Shown in pieces: positions 56,447-64,000 of a stretch of DNA of 64,000 nt. The position numbers and the translations under genes were made by a program. Below the pieces are notes generated by a model. The model was not told the DNA's origin. It worked only from the letters and a program-made list of their open reading frames with translations, and made no database searches. The number at the start of each line of letters is the position of its first letter. Position 1 is the first letter of the stretch. This DNA comes from an uncultured Gemmatimonadales bacterium (GTDB lineage: Bacteria; Gemmatimonadota; Gemmatimonadetes; Longimicrobiales; RSA9), in assembly GCA_963741945.1 (NCBI GenBank), contig CAVUKA010000003.1, positions 691,998 through 755,997 on the forward strand. The letters are read 5' to 3'.

Positions 56447-58333
56447 CTACTCCGCCGGTCTCACGAGGCGGATGAACGCCGGATCGGAGTGCAGGGGATG
56501 GAAGATCCAGTCGCGGGCGGCTACGTCGCGCCAGGAGGGATACTCCTCCAGGTAGCGCCGCAGGAGATCGAGCGCTCTCGGCAGGTCGCCGAGCTCGACC
56601 GCGATCTGCGCCTCATCGTAGCCCCACAGCGCGGCGGGCTCCTCGCCGAGGGCCCTGTGGACGATGGACCACGCGCTGTCCGCCAGCCCCGCCCGCGCGG
56701 CCGTTTTCGCCACCTGTAGCGCGCCGAAGAGGCGGAAGTCGCTCTGCCTGCCCGCGCTGGCGGAGACGACGAGCGTGTCCACGAGGCTCCAGGCCCGGTC
56801 CACGTCCGGCTCCACCTGCGGGAACGTACCGAGCACCATCAACTCCAGCTGGAGCAGGCTCGCGTCTTCGGGATAGCGGGCGCGCCCCTCGACTACCTGC
56901 TTCACGACGGCGTCGTCGGGGCCGAACTGCATGGTGCTGTAGGCTGCCGCGAAGAGCGCCGCGGGCTCCCGCTCCAGGAACTGATCGGCCTCGATGGCGT
57001 GCTGCGCCGCCAGACGCGCTTCCTCGAACCGTGCCTGATTCGTGAGCATGACGCTGAGCTCGCTCCACGCCGCGGCGCGGTCCGGATCGATTTCCACGGC
57101 CCGCCGGAGGTCGCTCTCGGCCAGGGCCTGCATGGCGGACAGGTCGCCCGACAGCGCAGGTGCGGATCGGGCACGGACGATGCCACGCAGCTCCAGCGCC
57201 CGCGCGGAGTCGGTGCCGAGGGCGACCGCGCGTTCCGCGTGCTCCAGCGCGCGCCGGCACCAGGCGGAGTCCGGCACGGTGGCGGAGCCGGTCGCCACGG
57301 CCATGGCCCTCGCCACGCCGCCGCGCCGGAGCGGCGGCTCGATCCACTGGGGGTCCAGCCGCTCCGCCCTTGCCAGGAGGGAATCCTCACGCAGCAGGAC
57401 CGCCCGGGCCGCCGCCACACTCTCGGTCCGGAGCGTGTCGTAGTCGGCCTGCAGCCGTCCGGCCCGGGCGACGAGTGCCCACGCCTCGTCGCTCTGGTTC
57501 CCCTGCCGCTGGCGGCGGAGCTGCAGCTCGCCACCCAGCACCTTGCGGAGCGCCCGGGCCACGCCCCCGACCAGGCTGTCCTGGAGCGCGATCCACTCGC
57601 CCACCGGCGCATCCACGTACTCGCTGTGAACGTGGCTCAGGTCGCTGCCGCGGATGAGCTGGAAAGTGACCCGGATGTCGCCGCCGGGCCCCGGCGCCAC
57701 GCTCCCTTCCACGATGCTGCCGGCCCGAAGCGCGGTCACCATCTGGTCGATGTCCACCTTCTGACCCCGGTACGGCTTCACGCCGTTGCGCGAGATCACG
57801 TCCAGCGAGCGCACCTGCCCCAGCTGGTGGATGAGCGCTTCCGTCAGCGCGTCGGCCAGGAACGCGGAGTGGCCGTCCTGCGTGTAGTCGTCGAAGTAGA
57901 GGACGGCCACGCGCGCGGGGTCCAGCGGCTGCGGGTCACCGATGCCCGCCTCGGTCGCCGTCGTCTCACGCACGCCCCAGAAATGCCAGCCGGAGACACC
58001 CATCCCGACACTCAACAGCACCACGAACAGGACGAGGACGATCCGCCCGCCCCCGCCCAGGAACTCGCTCAGTCGCTTTCCCGTCTCCGCGCGCACCCCG
58101 CCACCCGTGAACTGGAGCGCCCAGGCCAGGACCACCGCGATCGGGAAGCCCGCCGCGCCCACGATGATCGCCAGGTCGAGGAGCCAGAAAGGGTAGCCCA
58201 GGGCGGAAACGATGATCGTGTCCACGAACTGGACCACCGCGTACGCGGCCACGAGGTACAGGATCGCGGCCCGGGAAACGCGGCGTCGTCGCAGCTCCTG
58301 AAGGAACGACCGGAGGCGTGATCCGATCGGCAT
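56447..58333 (-). CDS. Membrane-anchored TolB-N-like/TPR protein
   Basis: FLQELRRRRV..Y, GFPIAVVLAW (3 TM), VAVLYF, LTEALIHQL, VISRNGV, VEGSV, TPR repeats, LHSDPAF. Confidence 0.85.
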   Translation of the reverse strand: MPIGSRLRSFLQELRRRRVSRAAILYLVAAYAVVQFVDTIIVSALGYPFWLLDLAIIVGAAGFPIAVVLAWALQFTGGGVRAETGKRLSEFLGGGGRIVLVLFVVLLSVGMGVSGWHFWGVRETTATEAGIGDPQPLDPARVAVLYFDDYTQDGHSAFLADALTEALIHQLGQVRSLDVISRNGVKPYRGQKVDIDQMVTALRAGSIVEGSVAPGPGGDIRVTFQLIRGSDLSHVHSEYVDAPVGEWIALQDSLVGGVARALRKVLGGELQLRRQRQGNQSDEAWALVARAGRLQADYDTLRTESVAAARAVLLREDSLLARAERLDPQWIEPPLRRGGVARAMAVATGSATVPDSAWCRRALEHAERAVALGTDSARALELRGIVRARSAPALSGDLSAMQALAESDLRRAVEIDPDRAAAWSELSVMLTNQARFEEARLAAQHAIEADQFLEREPAALFAAAYSTMQFGPDDAVVKQVVEGRARYPEDASLLQLELMVLGTFPQVEPDVDRAWSLVDTLVVSASAGRQSDFRLFGALQVAKTAARAGLADSAWSIVHRALGEEPAALWGYDEAQIAVELGDLPRALDLLRRYLEEYPSWRDVAARDWIFHPLHSDPAFIRLVRPAE

Positions 58334-58635
58334 GGGGCTCTTCTGCGGGTTGGGGGCAAGCCGTGCGGTGTACTGTTTCACTATGCCAGACGGCGGCGGC
58401 GCGGACAAGAGTGGTGATCGCGCCGAGTTCGCCGGGTCATGGCCATCGGGAGCCACCACCGTGCACCTGCGGGGGCACACGGATCGACTGCGAAGACCGG
58501 TCCACCCCCGCCCCCCCTTTCCCCGCCCCGCCCCCGCCCGCATCATCCGGGGCGCCCCGCTCGCCAGTCAGAGCCGTGAATCAGTCGGGGAACGACCCCG
58601 CACAGGGGCGGGGCCCATGGAGCGCATGACGCAGA

Positions 58636-60762
58636 ATGCCTGAACACGATGACCGATACGGGGCCATCCGCCCGCCCGAAGAGCTGAATCCGAGGCGGGA
58701 GGCGGCCCTCGATTTTGCCGACCGCCCGCTGAAGGAGATGACGGCTGCGGATTACGACGCCATCGGCTTCCTCTCGGGGCTCGAGGTGCACCAGCAGCTC
58801 CGCACGCCATCGAAGCTGTTCTGCCGCTGCCCCGCGGGCCGACGGGCGGACCGTGCGGACGCCGAAGTGCTGCGGCACATGCGCCCCACGCTCAGCGAGC
58901 TGGGTGAGTACGACGGCACCGCGCTGATGGAGTTCAAGACGCGCAAGGAGATCGTCTACCTCCTGGAGCGGGGCACGGTCTGTACGTACGAGATGGACGA
59001 CACGCCGCCGTTCCCCGTCGATGACGACGCGGTCCGCATCGCCGTCGAGCTGGCGCTGCTCTTCGACCTGAAGCTCGTTTCGGAGCTCCACGTCATGCGC
59101 AAGCAGTATCTGGACGGCTCGATCCCCACCGGGTTCCAGCGCACGGCCATGGTGGGCGTGGGCGGGAGCATCCCGTTCCGGGTCCCGGAGCTCGGTGTGG
59201 ACCGGCCGCTCTCCATCCGGCAGCTGTCGCTGGAGGAGGACTCCTGCCGCGAGGTCAGCGACCTCGGCCACCGCATCGTCTTCCGCGCCGACCGGCTGGG
59301 GGTCCCGCTCACCGAAGTGGTGACGGAGCCCGAGCTGCGGACGCCATGGGAGCTGCAGGCCGCCGCGCGTCTCATTGCCCGGACGGCGCGCGCCACCGGG
59401 CACGTGCGCCGCGGCGCCGGCGCGGCCCGCCAGGACGTGAATGTGTCGGTAGCGGGCGGGCGTCGCGTCGAGATCAAGGGCGTGCCCCGCCATCGCGGTC
59501 TGCCGCTGCTGGTTCACATCGAGGCGTTCCGTCAGCTGGCGCTCCTGCGGGTGAAGGCGGAGCTGGAGCGCCGGGGCGTCACCCTGGACCTGCTCCCGCT
59601 CCCGGGGCAGGCCCCGGCGTGGGAAGCGTCGAAGCTGGTCGTGGACGCGTCGTCGATCCTCGCACGCACGGGCCACGCACCCCTCCGCCGCGCGCTGGAG
59701 CGGGGCGACACTGCCGTCGCCGTCCGGCTCCCGGGCTTCGCCGGCCTCCTCGACCGTCCTGCGCAGCCGGGAATCCCGTTCGGCCACGAGCTGGCCGAGC
59801 GCGTGCGCGTCATCGCCTGCCCGATCGAACGCCCGTTCACGACCTGGGCGAACGTCGGCGCCGGCGCGGCACCGGTGACGGCGGGATCGGACGCGGGCGG
59901 CCGCGTCCGCGCGCACCCGGGCGCCGCCGACCTGTCGCGGGCGCACTGGCGGGCGATCGAGCAGGCGCTCGGCGCCGAGGGGGGCGACGCCATGATCGTC
60001 GCCTGGGCCCCGGCCGCCGACGCGGACACCGCCGCCCGGGAGATCCTGATCCGCGCCCGCGAAGCGCTGGCGGGCGTGCCCGCGGAAACGCGCCAGGCGC
60101 GGGCGGACGGGACCACGGGCTTCGAGCGCATCCTCCCCGGCGCCGACCGGATGTACCCCGACACGGACACGCCACCGCTCCCCATCGCGGATGCGCTGAT
60201 CGAGCGGGTGGTCGCCGAACTGCCGGAGACCCCATGGGCGCGGGCGGACCGCTACACCGGCCTCGGCCTCGACGTGCGGGAGGCGCAGCGCCTGTCGGCG
60301 GCGCCGTGGGCCGACCTCTTCGACGATGTCGCCCCGGAGGCAGGCGACGTCGCCCGCACCCTCGCCCGCGCACTCCAGCACCGGCTCCCCTTCCACGCCC
60401 GCCGCAGCGGGGCGGCCCCGCCCTCACCCGAGCGCCTGCGTCCGCTCGTCCGGGCACTGGAGGACGGGGACCTGCTTCCGGCCGCCATGGAGCCCGCCCT
60501 GGACGCGCTGGTCACCGGCCCGGAAGTCGCCGCCGCGGAGATCGTTGCCCGCTTCCGCGCTTCGCCGGAAGCCGCGACAGACGTGGAGACCAGGATCCCG
60601 GATGCCGCGGCGCGGGCGCGCAACCTGGGTCCGGCTGAGCCGGCGGCGGCAGTGCGGCGGGCGATGGGGGAGGTCATGCGGGGGTATCACGGGCGAGTGG
60701 ACGCCGCGGACGTGCGGCGCCGCGTCGTCGCCGCGCTGGGGTTCGAAGTGGAGGCAGCGTGA
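58636..60762 (+). CDS. gatE: Glu-tRNA(Gln) amidotransferase subunit E (archaeal-type)
   Basis: GLEVHQQL, KLFCRCP, RPTLSELGEYD, CTYEMDDTPP, MRKQYLDGSIPTGFQRT, LEEDSCR, DRLGVPLTE, RQDVNVSV, RVEIKGV, AspRS-like insert VRLPGFAGLL..QPG, GVPAETR, PGADRMYPDTD, tail MGEVMRGYHGRVD. Confidence 0.95.
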   Translation: MPEHDDRYGAIRPPEELNPRREAALDFADRPLKEMTAADYDAIGFLSGLEVHQQLRTPSKLFCRCPAGRRADRADAEVLRHMRPTLSELGEYDGTALMEFKTRKEIVYLLERGTVCTYEMDDTPPFPVDDDAVRIAVELALLFDLKLVSELHVMRKQYLDGSIPTGFQRTAMVGVGGSIPFRVPELGVDRPLSIRQLSLEEDSCREVSDLGHRIVFRADRLGVPLTEVVTEPELRTPWELQAAARLIARTARATGHVRRGAGAARQDVNVSVAGGRRVEIKGVPRHRGLPLLVHIEAFRQLALLRVKAELERRGVTLDLLPLPGQAPAWEASKLVVDASSILARTGHAPLRRALERGDTAVAVRLPGFAGLLDRPAQPGIPFGHELAERVRVIACPIERPFTTWANVGAGAAPVTAGSDAGGRVRAHPGAADLSRAHWRAIEQALGAEGGDAMIVAWAPAADADTAAREILIRAREALAGVPAETRQARADGTTGFERILPGADRMYPDTDTPPLPIADALIERVVAELPETPWARADRYTGLGLDVREAQRLSAAPWADLFDDVAPEAGDVARTLARALQHRLPFHARRSGAAPPSPERLRPLVRALEDGDLLPAAMEPALDALVTGPEVAAAEIVARFRASPEAATDVETRIPDAAARARNLGPAEPAAAVRRAMGEVMRGYHGRVDAADVRRRVVAALGFEVEAA

Positions 60763-60838
60763 TGGCCGGGGAGACGCTAGGGGAGGTCGGCCGTGCGGGT
60801 CGGCGGCGGGGCCGGCGGCGGCAGAGGGAGGAGCCGGC

Positions 60839-62218
60839 GTGAAGCGCGGTGGCTATCGGGGGCCGGCATGGGAGGTCATGCAGCGTTTCGGCATCACGGC
60901 GTGGTGCGAAGTGCGGGCGACGACCACGCGGGGCGCCTTCATCGGCCTGGTCCTGCCGCGCTCCGAAACCAGCGATGACCTGCACCTGGTCCTGAAGCTC
61001 GGCTCCGGGTACAACGTGGGCCTCCGTCACGACACCCTGCTCGATCTCGAGAAGATCGGCTACCGGGAAGCGCACTACCGGATCCCGGAGAAGGCGTTCC
61101 CCGTCACGCCCGACCTCCCGCGCGTCAAGCTGCTGGGGACGGGCGGGACGATCGCCTCGCGGCTGGACTACCGCACCGGCGCCGTGATCCCGGCGTTCAC
61201 GCCGGGCGAGCTGTACGGCTCCGTCCCGGAGCTGGCGGACGTGTGCAACCTGGAGACGGAGAAGCTGTTCGGCGTGTTCTCGGAGAACATGGGCCCCGAG
61301 CAGTACATCGTGATGGCCGAGAAGATCGGCGAGGCCATCCGCGACGGTTACGAGGGCGTGATGGTCGGCCACGGCACGGACACCATGCACCACACCGCCG
61401 CCGTGCTCAGCTTCATGGTGCAGGACCCGCCGGTCCCCGTGGTCCTGGTGGGGAGCCAGCGCTCGTCGGACCGGCCATCGTCGGACGCAGCCCGCAACCT
61501 CATCAACGCCGCCTGGGCCGCCGGGCACGGACCGATCGCGGAGGTCATGATCTGCATGTTCGGACCGACGTCGGACGTGTACAACCTGCTCCACCGCGGC
61601 ACACGCGTCCGCAAGATGCACAGCTCCGTGCGCAGCACGTTCCGCACGCTGGGCGACATCCCGCTGGCCATGGTGGAGCACGGCTCCCTCACGCCGTTGA
61701 AGGACGACTGGAAGCCCCGCCGCGACGACCGCGACGTGACCATTCTCGCCGCGTTCGATTCCCGGGTCACCCTGGTCTACTACTATCCCGGGATGCAGCC
61801 GGACATCATCGATGCCCTCGTGGAGCGCGGCTACCGCGGGATCGTGCTGGCGGGCACGGGGCTCGGCCACGTCAATCGCCTGATCTACCCCGCGCTGGAG
61901 CGCGCCCGCGACGCCGGCGTCCAGGTCTACATGACGCTTCAGACGCTCTGGGGCTTCGTCCAGATGCACGTCTACGAGACCGGCCGCGAGATCCTGGAGC
62001 TGGGCGTGGTGCCCCTCGCCAACATGCTCCCGGAAGTGGCGTACGTGAAGCTCGGCTGGGCGCTCGGTCTCCACCCGGACGATCCGGACGCGGTGCGCGA
62101 CCTGATGACCACCACGCTCGCCGGCGAGATGACCGAGCGCGAGCCCCACGACGGCTATCTCATCCTCCAGGGCGGTGTGCCCGAGGTACAGGAAGCGCTC
62201 GCGGGCATATGGCGGTGA
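60839..62218 (+). CDS. gatD: Glu-tRNA(Gln) amidotransferase subunit D (archaeal-type)
   Basis: GatD-specific N-domain GLVLPR...HLVLKLGSGYNVG, TGGTIASRLDYRTGAV, HGTDTM, GSQRSSDRPSSD, RVRKMHSS, GTGLGHV, VYETGR, PEVAYVKLGW. GGAGGAG SD before GTG. Confidence 0.95.
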   Translation: MKRGGYRGPAWEVMQRFGITAWCEVRATTTRGAFIGLVLPRSETSDDLHLVLKLGSGYNVGLRHDTLLDLEKIGYREAHYRIPEKAFPVTPDLPRVKLLGTGGTIASRLDYRTGAVIPAFTPGELYGSVPELADVCNLETEKLFGVFSENMGPEQYIVMAEKIGEAIRDGYEGVMVGHGTDTMHHTAAVLSFMVQDPPVPVVLVGSQRSSDRPSSDAARNLINAAWAAGHGPIAEVMICMFGPTSDVYNLLHRGTRVRKMHSSVRSTFRTLGDIPLAMVEHGSLTPLKDDWKPRRDDRDVTILAAFDSRVTLVYYYPGMQPDIIDALVERGYRGIVLAGTGLGHVNRLIYPALERARDAGVQVYMTLQTLWGFVQMHVYETGREILELGVVPLANMLPEVAYVKLGWALGLHPDDPDAVRDLMTTTLAGEMTEREPHDGYLILQGGVPEVQEALAGIWR

Positions 62219-62317
62219 CTCCCCGCCTGATTCCGCGGCGGCGGCCCGGTAGTCAATGGGCCGCCCCCGGGCTACCTTTCGGGCTGCTCCATGGCCTGCA
62301 ATGACGACGATGCCTCG

Positions 62318-64000
62318 ATGACGAATAGATGCCGCCGGTCGCTCGGGCGCCTCGCGACGTTCGCTGCGCTCCTCTCCTTCGCCGCGTGCGGCGCCCCGGT
62401 GAGTCCTGCGCCCCGCGCTGCGCGGCCGGAAACGGCGCCGCAGGCCGCGGGCGGCGCGGCGGAGGCCGCGGCCTGGGACACCGTCACCCGGACGCTGCCC
62501 ACCGGCGTAACGCTGGATCCGGCCGGCCAGCTGGTGGAGATGGGGTCGTTCCCGCTGGCGTTCGTGCTGGCGCCGGACCCGCGCTACGCCGTCGCCATCC
62601 TGAGCGGCTGGCGTCGTCAGGGACTGGACGTGGTGGACCGGGCGGCCGGCCGCGTGGTGCAGCGCGTGTCCCAGCCGGCCGCGTTCCTGGGTCTGACCTT
62701 CTCGCCCGATGGCCGGACGGTCTACGCCTCGGGCGGCAACCAGGACGTGGTCTACCGGTACGACTGGGGCCCCGAGCTGTTGACGTTCCGGGACAGCATC
62801 CCGCTGGCGCCGCCGAACCGTGCGACGGGGCACGTGCCGGGCGAGCCGATGATGGAGAGCGGAGCGCAGCAGGTGGGTCAGCGCTTCCCGGCCGGCCTGG
62901 CGCTGTCGCCCGATGGACACCGCCTCTACGTCGCGGAGAACCTGGGCGATGCGCTGGCCGTGCTGGACGTGGACAGCGGACGGGTGGTGCAGCGGCTCCC
63001 CGCCGGGCGGTATCCGTACGAAGTGGTGGTGGCCCCGGACGGGACCGTCTACGTATCGGCATGGTCCCAGGCCACGGTATCGGTGTTCCGCCCGGAAGGT
63101 GGCGGGCTCGCGCCCGATGGCACCATGGTGGTGGGACGCCATCCCTCGGCCATGGCCTTGAGCCGCGACGGCAGCCGCCTGTTCGTGGCATCGGCGAGCA
63201 CGGACCGGGTGGTGGTGGTGAACACCCGCGAGCGGCGCGTGATCACGGAGCTCTTCGACCGTGCGCCCCACGGCCCCGGTGAGGGGAGCACCCCGAACGC
63301 GCTGGCGCTGTCCCGCGACGGGCGCCGGCTCTTCGTCGCCGAAGCGGACAACAACGCCATCGCGGTATTCGACCTCTCGCCGCGCACGGCCGGGCTGGCC
63401 GCGGGCACCGGGGAGGACCGGCTGGCGGGGAGGATCCCCGTGGACTGGTACCCCACCGACGTCCTCGTGCGGGGCGACACGCTCCTGGCGCTCTCCGGCA
63501 AGGGACTCGGCACGGGGCCGAACCCCGGGCTGCCGCAGCCGGGGCAGCGGGGAACGCGCCGCACGGTCGAGGAGAGCTATACGCTCGGGCAGCTCAATGG
63601 CACCATTCGCTCGATCCCCGGTGGGACGACGCTGCGCGGCCAGGGGCTGGAACGGATGACGCAGCGGGTGGTGGCCGCGAACCACTGGACGCTCCCCCGT
63701 CGGGCGGCCGCGGAGGTCTACCCGCCGTTCGAGCACGTCATCTACGTCATCAAGGAGAACCGGACGTACGACCAGGTGTTCGGGGACATGAGCCCGGGGG
63801 ATGGCGACTCGACGCTCACGCTCTTCCCACGCCACGTCTCGCCCAACCACCACGCCCTGGCCGACCGCTTCGGACTGTTCGACCGCTTCTTCGTGAATGC
63901 CGAGGTGAGTGCCGACGGCCACAACTGGTCGACCGCCGCCTACGCCACCGACTACGTGGAGAAGACGGTCCCGTCCAACTACGCGGGGCTCCGGCCGAGC
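62318..64000 (+). CDS. YncE/YVTN beta-propeller plus phosphoesterase lipoprotein (runs off window)
   Basis: Manual translation: MTNRCRRSLGRLATFAALLSFAAC..., propeller repeats (LSPDGHRLYVAE, GRIPVDWYP), HVIYVIKENRTYDQVFGD, PNHHALA, AEVSADGHNWS. Confidence 0.88.
   Translation, partial: MTNRCRRSLGRLATFAALLSFAACGAPVSPAPRAARPETAPQAAGGAAEAAAWDTVTRTLPTGVTLDPAGQLVEMGSFPLAFVLAPDPRYAVAILSGWRRQGLDVVDRAAGRVVQRVSQPAAFLGLTFSPDGRTVYASGGNQDVVYRYDWGPELLTFRDSIPLAPPNRATGHVPGEPMMESGAQQVGQRFPAGLALSPDGHRLYVAENLGDALAVLDVDSGRVVQRLPAGRYPYEVVVAPDGTVYVSAWSQATVSVFRPEGGGLAPDGTMVVGRHPSAMALSRDGSRLFVASASTDRVVVVNTRERRVITELFDRAPHGPGEGSTPNALALSRDGRRLFVAEADNNAIAVFDLSPRTAGLAAGTGEDRLAGRIPVDWYPTDVLVRGDTLLALSGKGLGTGPNPGLPQPGQRGTRRTVEESYTLGQLNGTIRSIPGGTTLRGQGLERMTQRVVAANHWTLPRRAAAEVYPPFEHVIYVIKENRTYDQVFGDMSPGDGDSTLTLFPRHVSPNHHALADRFGLFDRFFVNAEVSADGHNWSTAAYATDYVEKTVPSNYAGLRPS

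Follow-up and report, generated by a model that had tools for sequence, protein, structure and literature searches.

An intact archaeal-type gatE-gatD operon in a Gemmatimonadota chromosome and a broad bacterial GatDE clade

Introduction

Passages of a 2022 review (PMC9499178) and of PMC2811023 state that the tRNA-dependent amidotransferase GatDE exists in archaea only. The sections concerned of the review name the A1-U72 first pair as the archaeal tRNA-Gln identity element and state that no archaeon has GlnRS, and passages of both sources invoke the co-evolution of GatDE with archaeal A1-U72 tRNA-Gln to account for archaea never having acquired GlnRS. Two tRNA-reading elements of GatE are set out in parts of PMC2811023. 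The first is a short basic cradle loop lying by tRNA pair 1-72, in place of the 3-10 turn of GatB. The second is a tail motif, GXXAXGX, which is named there as GatE-specific and linked to discrimination against Asp-tRNA(Asn).

The locus described here lies in a 64,000-nucleotide stretch (the window) of a contig from an uncultured Gemmatimonadales bacterium, and its host is bacterial, not archaeal. An earlier note on this DNA, made from the letters alone, proposed that the window holds a GatDE operon of archaeal type, intact and set within a bacterial chromosome, and this is borne out by HMM scores, structure-chain alignments, GC3 and synteny.

Results

Organization of the gatE-gatD operon

The operon and its surrounding intervals have the following layout (window coordinates).

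58547..58635, no strand: divergent intergenic region of 89 bp between a minus-strand TPR-protein gene and gatE
58636..60762, plus strand: gatE, a 708-aa open reading frame passing the NCBIfam GatE equivalogs; predicted tRNA-binding and kinase/transamidase subunit of GatDE with cradle, AspRS-like insertion, helical and YqeY-like tail domains
60763..60838, plus strand: gatE-gatD spacer of 76 nt, with a Shine-Dalgarno-like GGGAGGAG just 5′ of the gatD GTG
60839..62218, plus strand: gatD, 459 aa from the GTG at 60839; predicted asparaginase-type glutaminase subunit

Comparison at the sequence level confirms the first gene as full-length gatE. Its product scores 464.8 bits with NF003107 (cut-off 456) and 396.3 bits with TIGR00134 (cut-off 319.55), and fails the GatB equivalog test with only 134.5 bits for the best GatB model (cut-off 338). 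It aligns over nearly its full length with the archaeal GatE chains 1zq1_C and 2d6f_C (298.5 and 282.3 bits), and scores 56–71 bits with GatB structures. The 277-position Pfam GatB_N profile is stretched across residues 48–523, which leaves space for a GatE-specific insertion domain, and residues ~300–391, which align with the archaeal GatE chains, correspond to the AspRS-like insertion that is not present in GatB. The Pfam GAD model has no match in this protein at E≤0.01, and is recorded for some close relatives. A second stretch aligning to 1zq1_C spans residues 442–694; within the tail, residues 504–701 match positions 295–499 of a GatB model and the YqeY fusion model matches at 526–701. 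The motifs GLEVH, LEED and PLTE are present in columns that are invariant in a 26-sequence GatE alignment, and the cradle catalytic residues (the His of GLExH, both Glu of LEED, the Glu of PLxE, and RQD..N.S) are all kept. The insertion, the YqeY-like tail and these three motifs had been recognized in the earlier note, and each of them stands, as does the separation from GatB that it proposed to examine with HMMs.

The best start for gatD is the GTG at 60839, with GGGAGGAG upstream; an alternative ATG at 60878 would give a 446-aa product. A longer reading frame opening at 60326 overlaps gatE and was rejected as the gatD start. GatD scores 482.5 bits with TIGR02153 (cut-off 324), contains a GatD_N domain (36.6 bits; cut-off 25.7) together with Asparaginase and Asparaginase_C domains, and aligns along almost all of its length with the GatD chains 1zq1_A and 2d6f_A (382.4 and 374.3 bits) with TGGT, HGTDT and RKMH in register, in agreement with the specific N-domain and intact glutaminase residues described previously. 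It also passes the type I asparaginase subfamily model (361.3 bits; cut-off 260.5), as is expected of a GatD. Assignment as an ordinary type I L-asparaginase was rejected on the higher GatD equivalog score, the presence of the N-domain, and scores of 374–382 bits with GatD structures versus at most 151 bits with asparaginases. By HMM and structure-chain scores neither protein groups with GatB or ordinary asparaginases, an outcome that the earlier note had named as counting against its reading.

The divergent region upstream of gatE presumably holds the promoter. A scan of positions 58300–62500 for sigma-70 consensus promoters and terminators returned 0 sites.

The locus is part of a bacterial chromosome and is under selection

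The operon is located ~750 kb into an 892-kb contig. GC3 is 0.90 in both gatE and gatD and 0.84–0.92 in the neighbouring genes, and the order SDHa-SDHb-TPR-gatE-gatD-propeller is collinear in the host and in a genome of a second species of the same genus (G001), which is an independent assembly. The bacterial setting and neighbour-like codon usage claimed earlier are upheld by this GC3 match and synteny. The nearest relatives of the locus are hundreds of bacterial proteins with 60–81% identity, and the best archaeal match has 40%. Relative to the orthologues in G001, GatE has a dN/dS of 0.17 and GatD one of 0.067, at a dS of ~0.6; both genes are under purifying selection. One public DNA run contains 0.43 of the sequence words of the stretch, solely as contigs of 0.3–0.55 kb, and no RNA run holding the stretch is listed among public sequencing runs. 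Among the 8 of 25 pieces examined from that DNA run none bridges a flank junction. Nothing was found in favor of an artefact in which assembly or binning fused archaeal DNA to a bacterial contig. The depth of the locus within its contig, the shared GC3 and the bacterial relatives all speak against such an artefact, and the same gene order in the independent same-genus assembly practically refutes it; its probability is negligible.

Glutaminyl-tRNA inventory of the host

The host genome also encodes GlnRS-YqeY (680 bits), GatCAB, AsnRS and two GluRS. The GatB gene is elsewhere in the genome (506.9 bits), GatA scores 562.4 bits, and 11 of the 12 organism-named best matches of GatB are Gemmatimonadota. 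GlnRS is encoded on contig C6 and has a YqeY-type tail that matches the tail region of GatB with 124.3 bits. With both GlnRS-YqeY and GatCAB present, GatDE is a third, redundant route to Gln-tRNA and not the host's only one. Nothing in the host genome requires GatDE. Most GatDE-bearing bacteria likewise have GlnRS (21/24 in the phylum, 47/55 elsewhere), so that a rationale based on missing GlnRS fails.

The 1-72 pair of tRNA-Gln, which the earlier note had singled out for inspection, is U1-A72 in all three host genes and never the archaeal A1-U72, and tRNA-Asn is also U1-A72. A bacterial GatDE acting on these tRNAs must therefore accept the bacterial first pair.

tRNA-reading elements of bacterial GatE

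The two elements were compared in 27 bacterial and 30 archaeal GatE rows. The cradle loop of the host protein (GHVRRG-AG-AARQD) is without GatB-type insertions and retains the short basic form, and differs by a clade-wide change: the archaeal Ile is present in 27/30 archaeal and 0/27 bacterial rows. The tail motif reads P-A-A-A-V-R-R in the host, in place of GXXAXGX. Its first Gly is found in 20/30 archaeal versus 0/27 bacterial rows and its third Gly in 11/30 versus 0/27, the motif being loose in archaea too. Clade-specific substitutions in both elements would fit a retuning to U1-A72. Because the bacterial clade has lost a motif that the literature links to Asp-tRNA(Asn) rejection, its specificity may differ from that of the archaeal enzyme.

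Distribution and phylogeny

GatE has a patchy distribution in the phylum Gemmatimonadota (21/401 sampled genomes) and is found in many further bacterial phyla. The best 80 GatE loci in species genomes are all bacterial by title; gatD was found at 70 of these and is immediately 3′ of gatE in 65 of the 70. Clustering of the neighbours at the 80 loci revealed none conserved across phyla beyond gatD. In a quick tree with AU test and 30 archaeal rows, bacterial GatE sequences are a single clade separate from archaeal GatE: constraining each group to be monophyletic gives a likelihood 17.1 log units above that of the free quick search (p-AU 0.728). The free search had placed a Heimdallarchaeota GatE as sister of the bacterial sequences (SH-aLRT 98), an arrangement not upheld by the better-scoring tree that keeps the archaeal rows together. 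The archaea-to-bacteria transfer that the earlier note offered has to be recast, as the genes are not private to this genome and belong to a broad multi-phylum clade, and the AU-tested tree gives no support for the direction.

The GatDE clade is a large, old bacterial branch extending over many phyla, and is apparently undescribed. On prior description, about which the note was undecided, annotation pipelines already label such bacterial genes GatE, and no published description of bacterial GatDE was found in the literature searched. A broader reading, offered tentatively and rather less probable than its opposite, is that bacterial GatDE is an old domain-level sister of the archaeal enzyme and not a stray archaeal gene; it would be present in the FCB group, Planctomycetota, Acidobacteriota, Myxococcota and candidate phyla, would have both tRNA-reading elements retuned to U1-A72 tRNA-Gln with a specificity that is possibly widened, and together with GlnRS would have displaced GatCAB in some lineages.

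Linkage to gltX and glnS, and apparent replacement of GatCAB

At five of the 80 loci (L060, L061, L063, L068, L074) glnS adjoins gatD, and in four of these gltX adjoins gatE. The same gltX<>gatE-gatD-glnS cluster recurs in two genomes of the phylum (G100 and G233), and a third (G099) has gatE-gatD-glnS with gltX ~8 kb distant. No tRNA-Gln gene adjoins the operon at any of the 80 loci. The gatE-linked gltX products are 45–51% identical to the host GluRS encoded on contig C7 and just 32–37% to that on contig C8; orthologues of the C7 gene are head-to-head with gatE in related genomes, and in the host the C7 gene adjoins a tRNA-Gln(CUG) gene. The C7 protein scores 378.9 bits with chains named GluRS2 (including a GatCAB-transamidosome fusion) versus 330.1 bits with GluRS1, and the C8 protein shows the reverse (363.7 bits with GluRS1, 302.9 with GluRS2). 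From these relative scores and the gene linkage, the C7 GluRS is a candidate non-discriminating partner of GatDE.

One family in the phylum (f4) has a contrast, with GatB in 2/13 and GlnRS in 10/13 of its GatE-positive genomes versus 146/153 and 27/153 of its GatE-negative ones, although these genomes are related and not independent and the contrast may reflect one or few events. In this family GatCAB has apparently given way to a module of GatDE and GlnRS, gltX<>gatE-gatD-glnS. Candidates for GatDE as sole route are 6 of the 55 GatDE-bearing genomes from other phyla, in which neither GlnRS nor GatB was found; these are MAGs of unknown completeness, one of them with just 19 tRNA matches in an Rfam scan of five. 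A BLAST search of the five MAGs with the host tRNA-Gln located tRNA-Gln in two, and all three genes are U1-A72. Within the phylum, gatE is at a contig end in 2/3 of the GatDE-only cases. At least one carrier, Perlabentimonas gracilis M08_MB (locus L082), bears a strain designation and not a MAG label; it has GlnRS and is without GatCAB.

Discussion

Proposed function and alternatives

On balance, gatE and gatD probably constitute a working member of the bacterial GatDE clade, a heterodimeric tRNA-dependent amidotransferase, for which Glu-tRNA(Gln) transamidation is the most likely role. If the archaeal homologue is a guide, GatD would hydrolyse Gln (or Asn) to release ammonia, and GatE would bind Glu-tRNA(Gln), phosphorylate the glutamyl side chain and then amidate it, yielding Gln-tRNA(Gln). 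The GluRS2-like paralogue on contig C7 would supply the Glu-tRNA(Gln), and the U1-A72 first pair would be accepted through retuned GatE elements.

In Thermus and Deinococcus, Asn is supplied by GatCAB. A GatDE of broadened or switched specificity could act similarly, amidating Asp-tRNA(Asn) either alone or in addition to Glu-tRNA(Gln), and this would suit the replacement, in 27/27 bacterial rows, of the tail motif that parts of PMC2811023 tie to Asp-tRNA(Asn) rejection, as well as the U1-A72 pair of host tRNA-Asn, the occupation by GatDE in f4 of the usual place of dual-specificity GatCAB, and the failure to find AsnA or AsnB in the host or in genome G430. It is nonetheless unlikely: AsnRS is encoded in 24/24 GatE-positive genomes of the phylum, AsnB or AsnA is present in 7/8 of the GatB-lacking GatDE carriers that were tested, the genes linked to the operon over the 80 loci are gltX and glnS and never aspS or asnS, and the host keeps GatCAB for such a need. 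Slightly less probable again is repurposing towards another aminoacyl-tRNA, a non-tRNA substrate or a regulatory or other non-translational role. Retention of every catalytic column and of the insertion, helical and tail domains that make up the complete tRNA-binding architecture argues against it, as do the gltX and glnS linkage, the anticorrelation with GatCAB in f4 and the candidate sole-route genomes, even though GlnRS accompanies GatDE in most carriers, both tRNA-reading elements are changed and the operon has no adjoining tRNA-Gln gene.

The three side-by-side routes to Gln-tRNA(Gln) in the host and the patchy occurrence in the phylum could also mark the operon as a redundant relic, heading for loss and without present function. 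This is improbable, since both genes are intact with low dN/dS, the same-genus genome also retains the operon, and gatD is preceded by a good ribosome-binding site. A functional Glu-tRNA(Gln) amidotransferase is accordingly the preferred reading.

Implications

In the genome that holds the window the biology is less dramatic, GatDE being a redundant third route. A broad bacterial GatDE clade found beside GlnRS and U1-A72 tRNA-Gln is a natural counter-example to the co-evolution argument. It opens to test how reading of the first base pair and the D-loop is encoded in GatE, why an indirect Gln route is retained despite GlnRS, and whether GatDE is older than the domain split. Were the domain-level sister relationship true, GatDE would no longer be an archaeal signature and LUCA-era scenarios for both amidotransferases would need redrawing. 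Experiments appear feasible in P. gracilis M08_MB, with its GlnRS and no GatCAB.

Comparison with known systems

The bacterial GatDE resembles the archaeal enzymes (1zq1 and 2d6f) in having both subunits, the same domain order, the catalytic motifs in each, equivalog-level HMM scores, and a short basic GatE cradle loop where GatB has the 3-10 turn. It differs in its bacterial host, with U1-A72 rather than A1-U72 tRNA-Gln, in its coexistence with GlnRS, in a cradle loop reading G-A-A-RQD versus archaeal G-T-I-RQD, and in a tail with a basic and aromatic motif in place of GXXAXGX. The host GatE is in addition extended by 38 aa at its N terminus, and its linker at residues 392–441 is ~25 aa longer.

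Bacterial GatCAB shares the reaction class, a paralogous subunit (GatB, paralogue of GatE) and, in f4, the same genomic place. Its glutaminase is unrelated, however (the amidase GatA versus the asparaginase-type GatD), and GatDE is without GatC, while GatE has the insertion domain and does not have the 3-10 turn insert of GatB. The C6 GlnRS of the host, of the Deinococcus type with a C-terminal YqeY domain (PRK14703), is a second protein with a YqeY-type tRNA-Gln sensor, but is a direct charging enzyme and not an amidotransferase, and its gene is outside the window. Finally, in two-GluRS amidotransferase systems (PDB 'Glutamyl-tRNA synthetase 2'; GatC fusion in 3al0) the amidotransferase of the solved complex is GatCAB and not GatDE; like them, the host has paralogues that split by score into GluRS1-like and GluRS2-like, and a GluRS2-like gene of the host type is linked to gatE in its relatives.

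The GatDE operon and its genomic setting

The operon is on an 892-kb contig, ~750 kb from its start, in a 4.09 Mb genome (8 contigs; completeness 96.7%, contamination 2.2%) and consists of two genes:

58636-60762, + strand: gatE, a 708-aa ORF identified by NCBIfam GatE models and GatE structure alignments
60839-62218, + strand: gatD (TIGR02153), most plausibly starting at GTG 60839, just downstream of GGGAGGAG

GatE, the tRNA-binding transamidase subunit, scores above the cut-offs of NF003107 (464.8 bits vs 456) and TIGR00134 (396.3 bits vs 319.55), whereas models for its bacterial paralogue GatB, the comparison proposed in the earlier note, reach at most 134.5 bits against cut-offs of at least 315. 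Structure chains rank similarly (1zq1_C 298.5 bits, 2d6f_C 282.3 bits; GatB structures 39-71 bits). The alignment with these two archaeal GatE chains covers residues 39-391 and 442-694, and the window protein exceeds them by 38 residues at the N-terminus and by ~25 residues in a linker (392-441). GatD, the asparaginase-type glutaminase, passes TIGR02153 with 482.5 bits against a cut-off of 324, contains GatD_N, Asparaginase and Asparaginase_C domains, and aligns nearly end to end with 1zq1_A (382.4 bits) and 2d6f_A (374.3 bits), with the TGGT, HGTDT and RKMH motifs kept. Every motif quoted in the earlier note is found in the translations, and its observation of a GatDE pair is right: the genes are real, intact and under selection, with dN/dS values of 0.112/0.667 (gatE) and 0.038/0.567 (gatD) relative to a second species of the genus (G001).

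The locus is not the chimeric join that the earlier note had considered. G+C content across the operon is ~70%, as in the surrounding DNA, and GC3 is 0.90 in both genes (neighbours 0.84-0.92). The flanking genes are ordinary, encoding a GCS2 ligase, an LPG-synthase-like membrane protein, a DsbA-like protein, an AMP-binding enzyme, an M28 peptidase, serine dehydratase alpha and beta subunits (SDHa, SDHb), a TPR protein and a beta-propeller protein. G001 has the same order, SDHa-SDHb-TPR(-)-gatE-gatD-propeller, with protein identities of 90, 91, 62, 81, 93 and 80%, respectively. A public metagenome run contains related fragments, with no junction-bridging piece among the pieces listed.

Distribution of bacterial GatE

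All of the best organism-named relatives of the window GatE are Gemmatimonadota (five named among the best 120 and one in a further search). Within 41 close relatives, GatE is above cut-off in five, counting the host, with a split match in a sixth (G010:C19:10890-12333, locus L023); its two adjacent pieces are both below cut-off, one lies inside a 1998-aa frame, and the split may represent a frameshift or a fusion. At E<=1e-40, GatE is present in 21 of 401 genomes and 14 of 148 genera of the phylum sample; these tallies include single rows of seven genomes flagged unpublished (G016, G017, G020, G026, G097, G187 and G210), none of them GatE-positive.

A 90%-cluster protein database yields 8000 scored GatE matches, the best 120 being 60-81% identical, and a 50%-cluster library yields 579 clusters at E<=1e-30. 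The latter fall into identity tiers of 59-68% (the window's own clade), 43-52% (one named member, a candidate bacterial division) and 32-40%, in which the named members are archaeal (Heimdall-, Thor-, Odin- and Parvarchaeota, Thermoprotei and Methanofastidiosum). A species-genome scan with a 26-sequence GatE profile confirms at least 599 stretches, and the best 80 are all under bacterial titles. These include Bacteroidota (Bacteroidales, Lentimicrobiaceae, Rhodothermaceae, Kapaibacteria), Ignavibacteria, Melioribacteraceae, Caldithrix, Cloacimonetes, Fermentibacteria, Aegiribacteria, Krumholzibacteria, Zixibacteria, Gemmatimonadota, Phycisphaerae and other Planctomycetota, Acidobacteriota (Aminicenantes, Thermoanaerobaculia, Holophaga), Myxococcota, Coatesbacteria and Lentisphaeria, with one strain-designated record, Perlabentimonas gracilis M08_MB. 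The earlier note's identification of an archaeal-type GatDE in a bacterium stands, but a transfer private to this genome does not, as the GatE clade is common to many phyla.

Loci titled Eubacteriales, Rickettsiales, Hyphomicrobiales and Thermotogae are placed among FCB-group sequences in the tree and may be mislabelled bins. Two GatE proteins under Ignavibacteria and Zixibacteria titles (L089 and L102) are nearly identical, with end branches of 0.0065 and 0.03, and two under Aminicenantes and 'Eubacteriales' titles (L027 and L039) are also very close; such near-identity across phylum titles could mean that bins are mislabelled or that the gene was transferred very recently.

Phylogeny of GatE

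A FastTree phylogeny of 198 rows (76 full-length sequences of the 80 loci, the window, nine close relatives and every representative 590-720 aa long, with a single GatB row as outgroup) recovers all 119 bacterial rows as one clade (support 95) and 77 archaeal rows as another (support 96), with a Heimdallarchaeota row unresolved. The window GatE is inside a 22-row clade (support 100) together with all seven Gemmatimonadota-titled loci. An IQ-TREE quick search (LG+C20 PMSF) on 61 rows picked for spread (27 bacterial, 30 archaeal and 4 GatB) also recovers the bacterial rows as one clade (SH-aLRT 100, stem 0.41). Many rows are deviant in composition, the branch supports are FastTree and SH-aLRT values, and archaea are sampled only from the 150 best representatives; with this sampling the trees support bacterial GatE as one clade apart from the sampled archaeal GatE, a relationship that implies neither direction nor date of transfer. 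The quick search also puts the Heimdallarchaeota row as sister to the bacteria (SH-aLRT 98), a placement that is not robust: constraining the 30 archaeal rows to one group gives a best tree whose log-likelihood exceeds that of the free search by 17.1 (p-AU 0.728).

Elements for tRNA reading

A section of PMC2811023 describes in GatE a conserved loop, short and basic, at the site of the GatB 3-10 turn, which reads U1-A72 in bacterial GatB; the paper also names a GatE-specific GXXAXGX motif in the tail. In the 61-row alignment all bacterial rows have the GatE-type loop and the GatB insertions are absent; the cradle loop and tail motif differ systematically between the archaeal and bacterial clades.

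Table. Cradle loop and tail motif in the 61-row alignment
Feature; archaeal rows (n=30); bacterial rows (n=27)
Cradle loop consensus; G-[KR]-V-K-R-G-[LI]-G-T-I-R-Q-D; G-[KR]-V-R-[RT]-G-x-G-A-A-R-Q-D
Cradle loop Ile; 27/30; 0/27
Tail motif first Gly; 20/30; 0/27
Tail motif Ala; 20/30; 6/27
Tail motif third Gly; 11/30; 0/27 (Arg in 14)
Residue following tail third Gly; Pro 13/30; Trp/Phe/Tyr 18/27

A strict regular expression of the archaeal tail motif matches 0/119 bacterial-clade rows and 17/78 archaeal rows, so the motif is loose even within archaea. The loop and tail changes may be adaptations to bacterial tRNA-Gln, or may widen the specificity of the enzyme.

Other tRNA routes in the host

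The inventory suggested in the earlier note finds two GluRS genes, GlnRS and GatB/GatA, with U1-A72 in all three tRNA-Gln genes. GatB (506.9 bits) adjoins GatA (562.4 bits) elsewhere in the genome, and 11 of its 12 organism-named best matches are Gemmatimonadota or Longimicrobiales, the twelfth being labelled Planctomycetota. GlnRS (680 bits; contig C6:220992-223253, loci L005, L007 and L009) resembles Deinococcus GlnRS in having a C-terminal YqeY/GatB-tail-like domain (124.3 bits to GatB positions 302-480); GlnRS open frames in relatives range from ~565 to >1000 aa, and only some of the phylum's lineages therefore have this fusion. With GatCAB genes and GlnRS both present, GatDE would be a third route to Gln-tRNA(Gln), and the operon most likely encodes a redundant Glu-tRNA(Gln) amidotransferase.

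The genome has two full GluRS genes, with scores of 523 and 457.7 bits; contigs C7 and C8 carry one each. The C7 protein scores best on chains named GluRS 2, one of them GatC-fused and from a transamidosome entry (378.9 bits vs 330.1 for GluRS 1), and the C8 protein shows the reverse (363.7 bits for GluRS 1 vs 302.9 for GluRS 2). The C8 gene is in a 652-aa open frame (L011, 421-2379) whose first ~170 residues match no GluRS model; either the protein is extended at its N-terminus or the frame's upstream start is false. ARAGORN predicts 57 tRNA genes, including three for tRNA-Gln (two CUG, one UUG), and U1-A72 is also found in tRNA-Asn. One tRNA-Gln(CUG) gene is ~100 bp from the C7 gltX; a tRNA-Gln(CUG) gene is also among 22 tRNA genes packed in ~2.4 kb at C1:1189526-1191883, and a tRNA-SeC gene is at C1:35510-35606.

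That bacterial GatDE generally serves tRNA-dependent asparagine synthesis is unlikely, because AsnRS is present in all 24 GatE-positive phylum genomes and AsnB or AsnA in seven of eight tested carriers without GatB. A local role of this kind is possible in the host and in G430, where neither AsnB nor AsnA is found. The host encodes AsnRS and a bacterial AspRS, has no match to AsnB (TIGR01536) or AsnA (TIGR00669), unlike G001 with two AsnB matches, and may make asparagine by the tRNA-dependent route or carry a synthetase gene in the missing 3% of the genome.

Gene neighbourhoods and co-occurrence

Among the 80 best GatE loci gatD is present in 70 and directly downstream of gatE in 65; in six of the ten loci without it the sequence ends within 1.2 kb of gatE. 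When the flanking ORFs are all clustered, no other neighbour is common across phyla, and no tRNA-Gln gene adjoins the operon in these loci. At the edge of a gatE-bearing Coatesbacteria MAG contig (L070, 16-90) ARAGORN reports a 'tRNA-Stop' with anticodon UUA, which would read UAA.

Four Gemmatimonadota-titled loci share the order gltX (divergent)-gatE-gatD-glnS, and a fifth locus with glnS beside the operon is titled uncultured delta proteobacterium and belongs to the same GatE clade. The gltX/gatE-gatD/glnS cluster is also present in phylum genomes G100 and G233, and G099 has gatE-gatD-glnS with gltX ~8 kb away. The gatD match in G099 is in two overlapping pieces (L114, C10 13699-15064; query residues 5-114 and 91-459), apparently in different frames, which suggests a frameshift or sequencing error. 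The linked gltX products are 45-51% identical to the host C7 copy and 32-37% to the C8 copy.

In one family of the phylum sample (f4, 166 genomes), GatB is present in 2 of 13 GatE-positive genomes and GlnRS in 10, compared with 146 (144/151 without the unpublished-flagged G097 and G210) and 27 of 153 GatE-negative genomes. Three GatE-positive genomes have no GlnRS, but in two of them gatE is at a contig end, which makes that absence unreliable. The usual state in this family is GatCAB without GlnRS, and the GatDE state is GatDE and GlnRS without GatCAB, an apparent displacement of GatCAB; as the genomes are interrelated, the contrast may reflect few events or just one. In the host's own family GatB is kept in all four GatE-positive genomes, and also in the host. 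Within its order, GatB is accompanied by two GluRS copies in genus g25 (4/4 genomes), and the lack of an amidotransferase by one copy in genus g27 (12/12).

Beyond the phylum sample, 55 carriers of named loci were picked before results by phylum spread and contig size (five loci on chromosomes or long contigs, one strain-designated record, 50 of the remaining 75 loci). GlnRS alone is found in 29, GlnRS with GatB in 18, GatB alone in two and neither in six, in genomes that may be incomplete. One of these six has just 19 tRNA matches, and in two of the six all three recovered tRNA-Gln genes have U1-A72 and G73.

Comparison with described GatDE

The searchable literature contains no co-mention of GatDE with a Gemmatimonad- word and none of the phrases 'bacterial GatDE', 'GatDE homolog' or 'GatDE-like', and no treatment of bacterial GatDE was found among the papers listed since 2013 that mention GatDE; subscription journals and supplementary files were outside the search, so an earlier mention elsewhere is possible. 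Annotation pipelines already name bacterial genes GatE. A passage of PMC2811023 states that GatDE 'occurs exclusively in archaea'. Against the searchable literature, the novelty lies in there being a bacterial GatDE clade at all and in how broad it is; the clade has predicted U1-A72 substrates, changed tRNA-reading motifs, regular co-occurrence with GlnRS and, in one family, apparent displacement of GatCAB.
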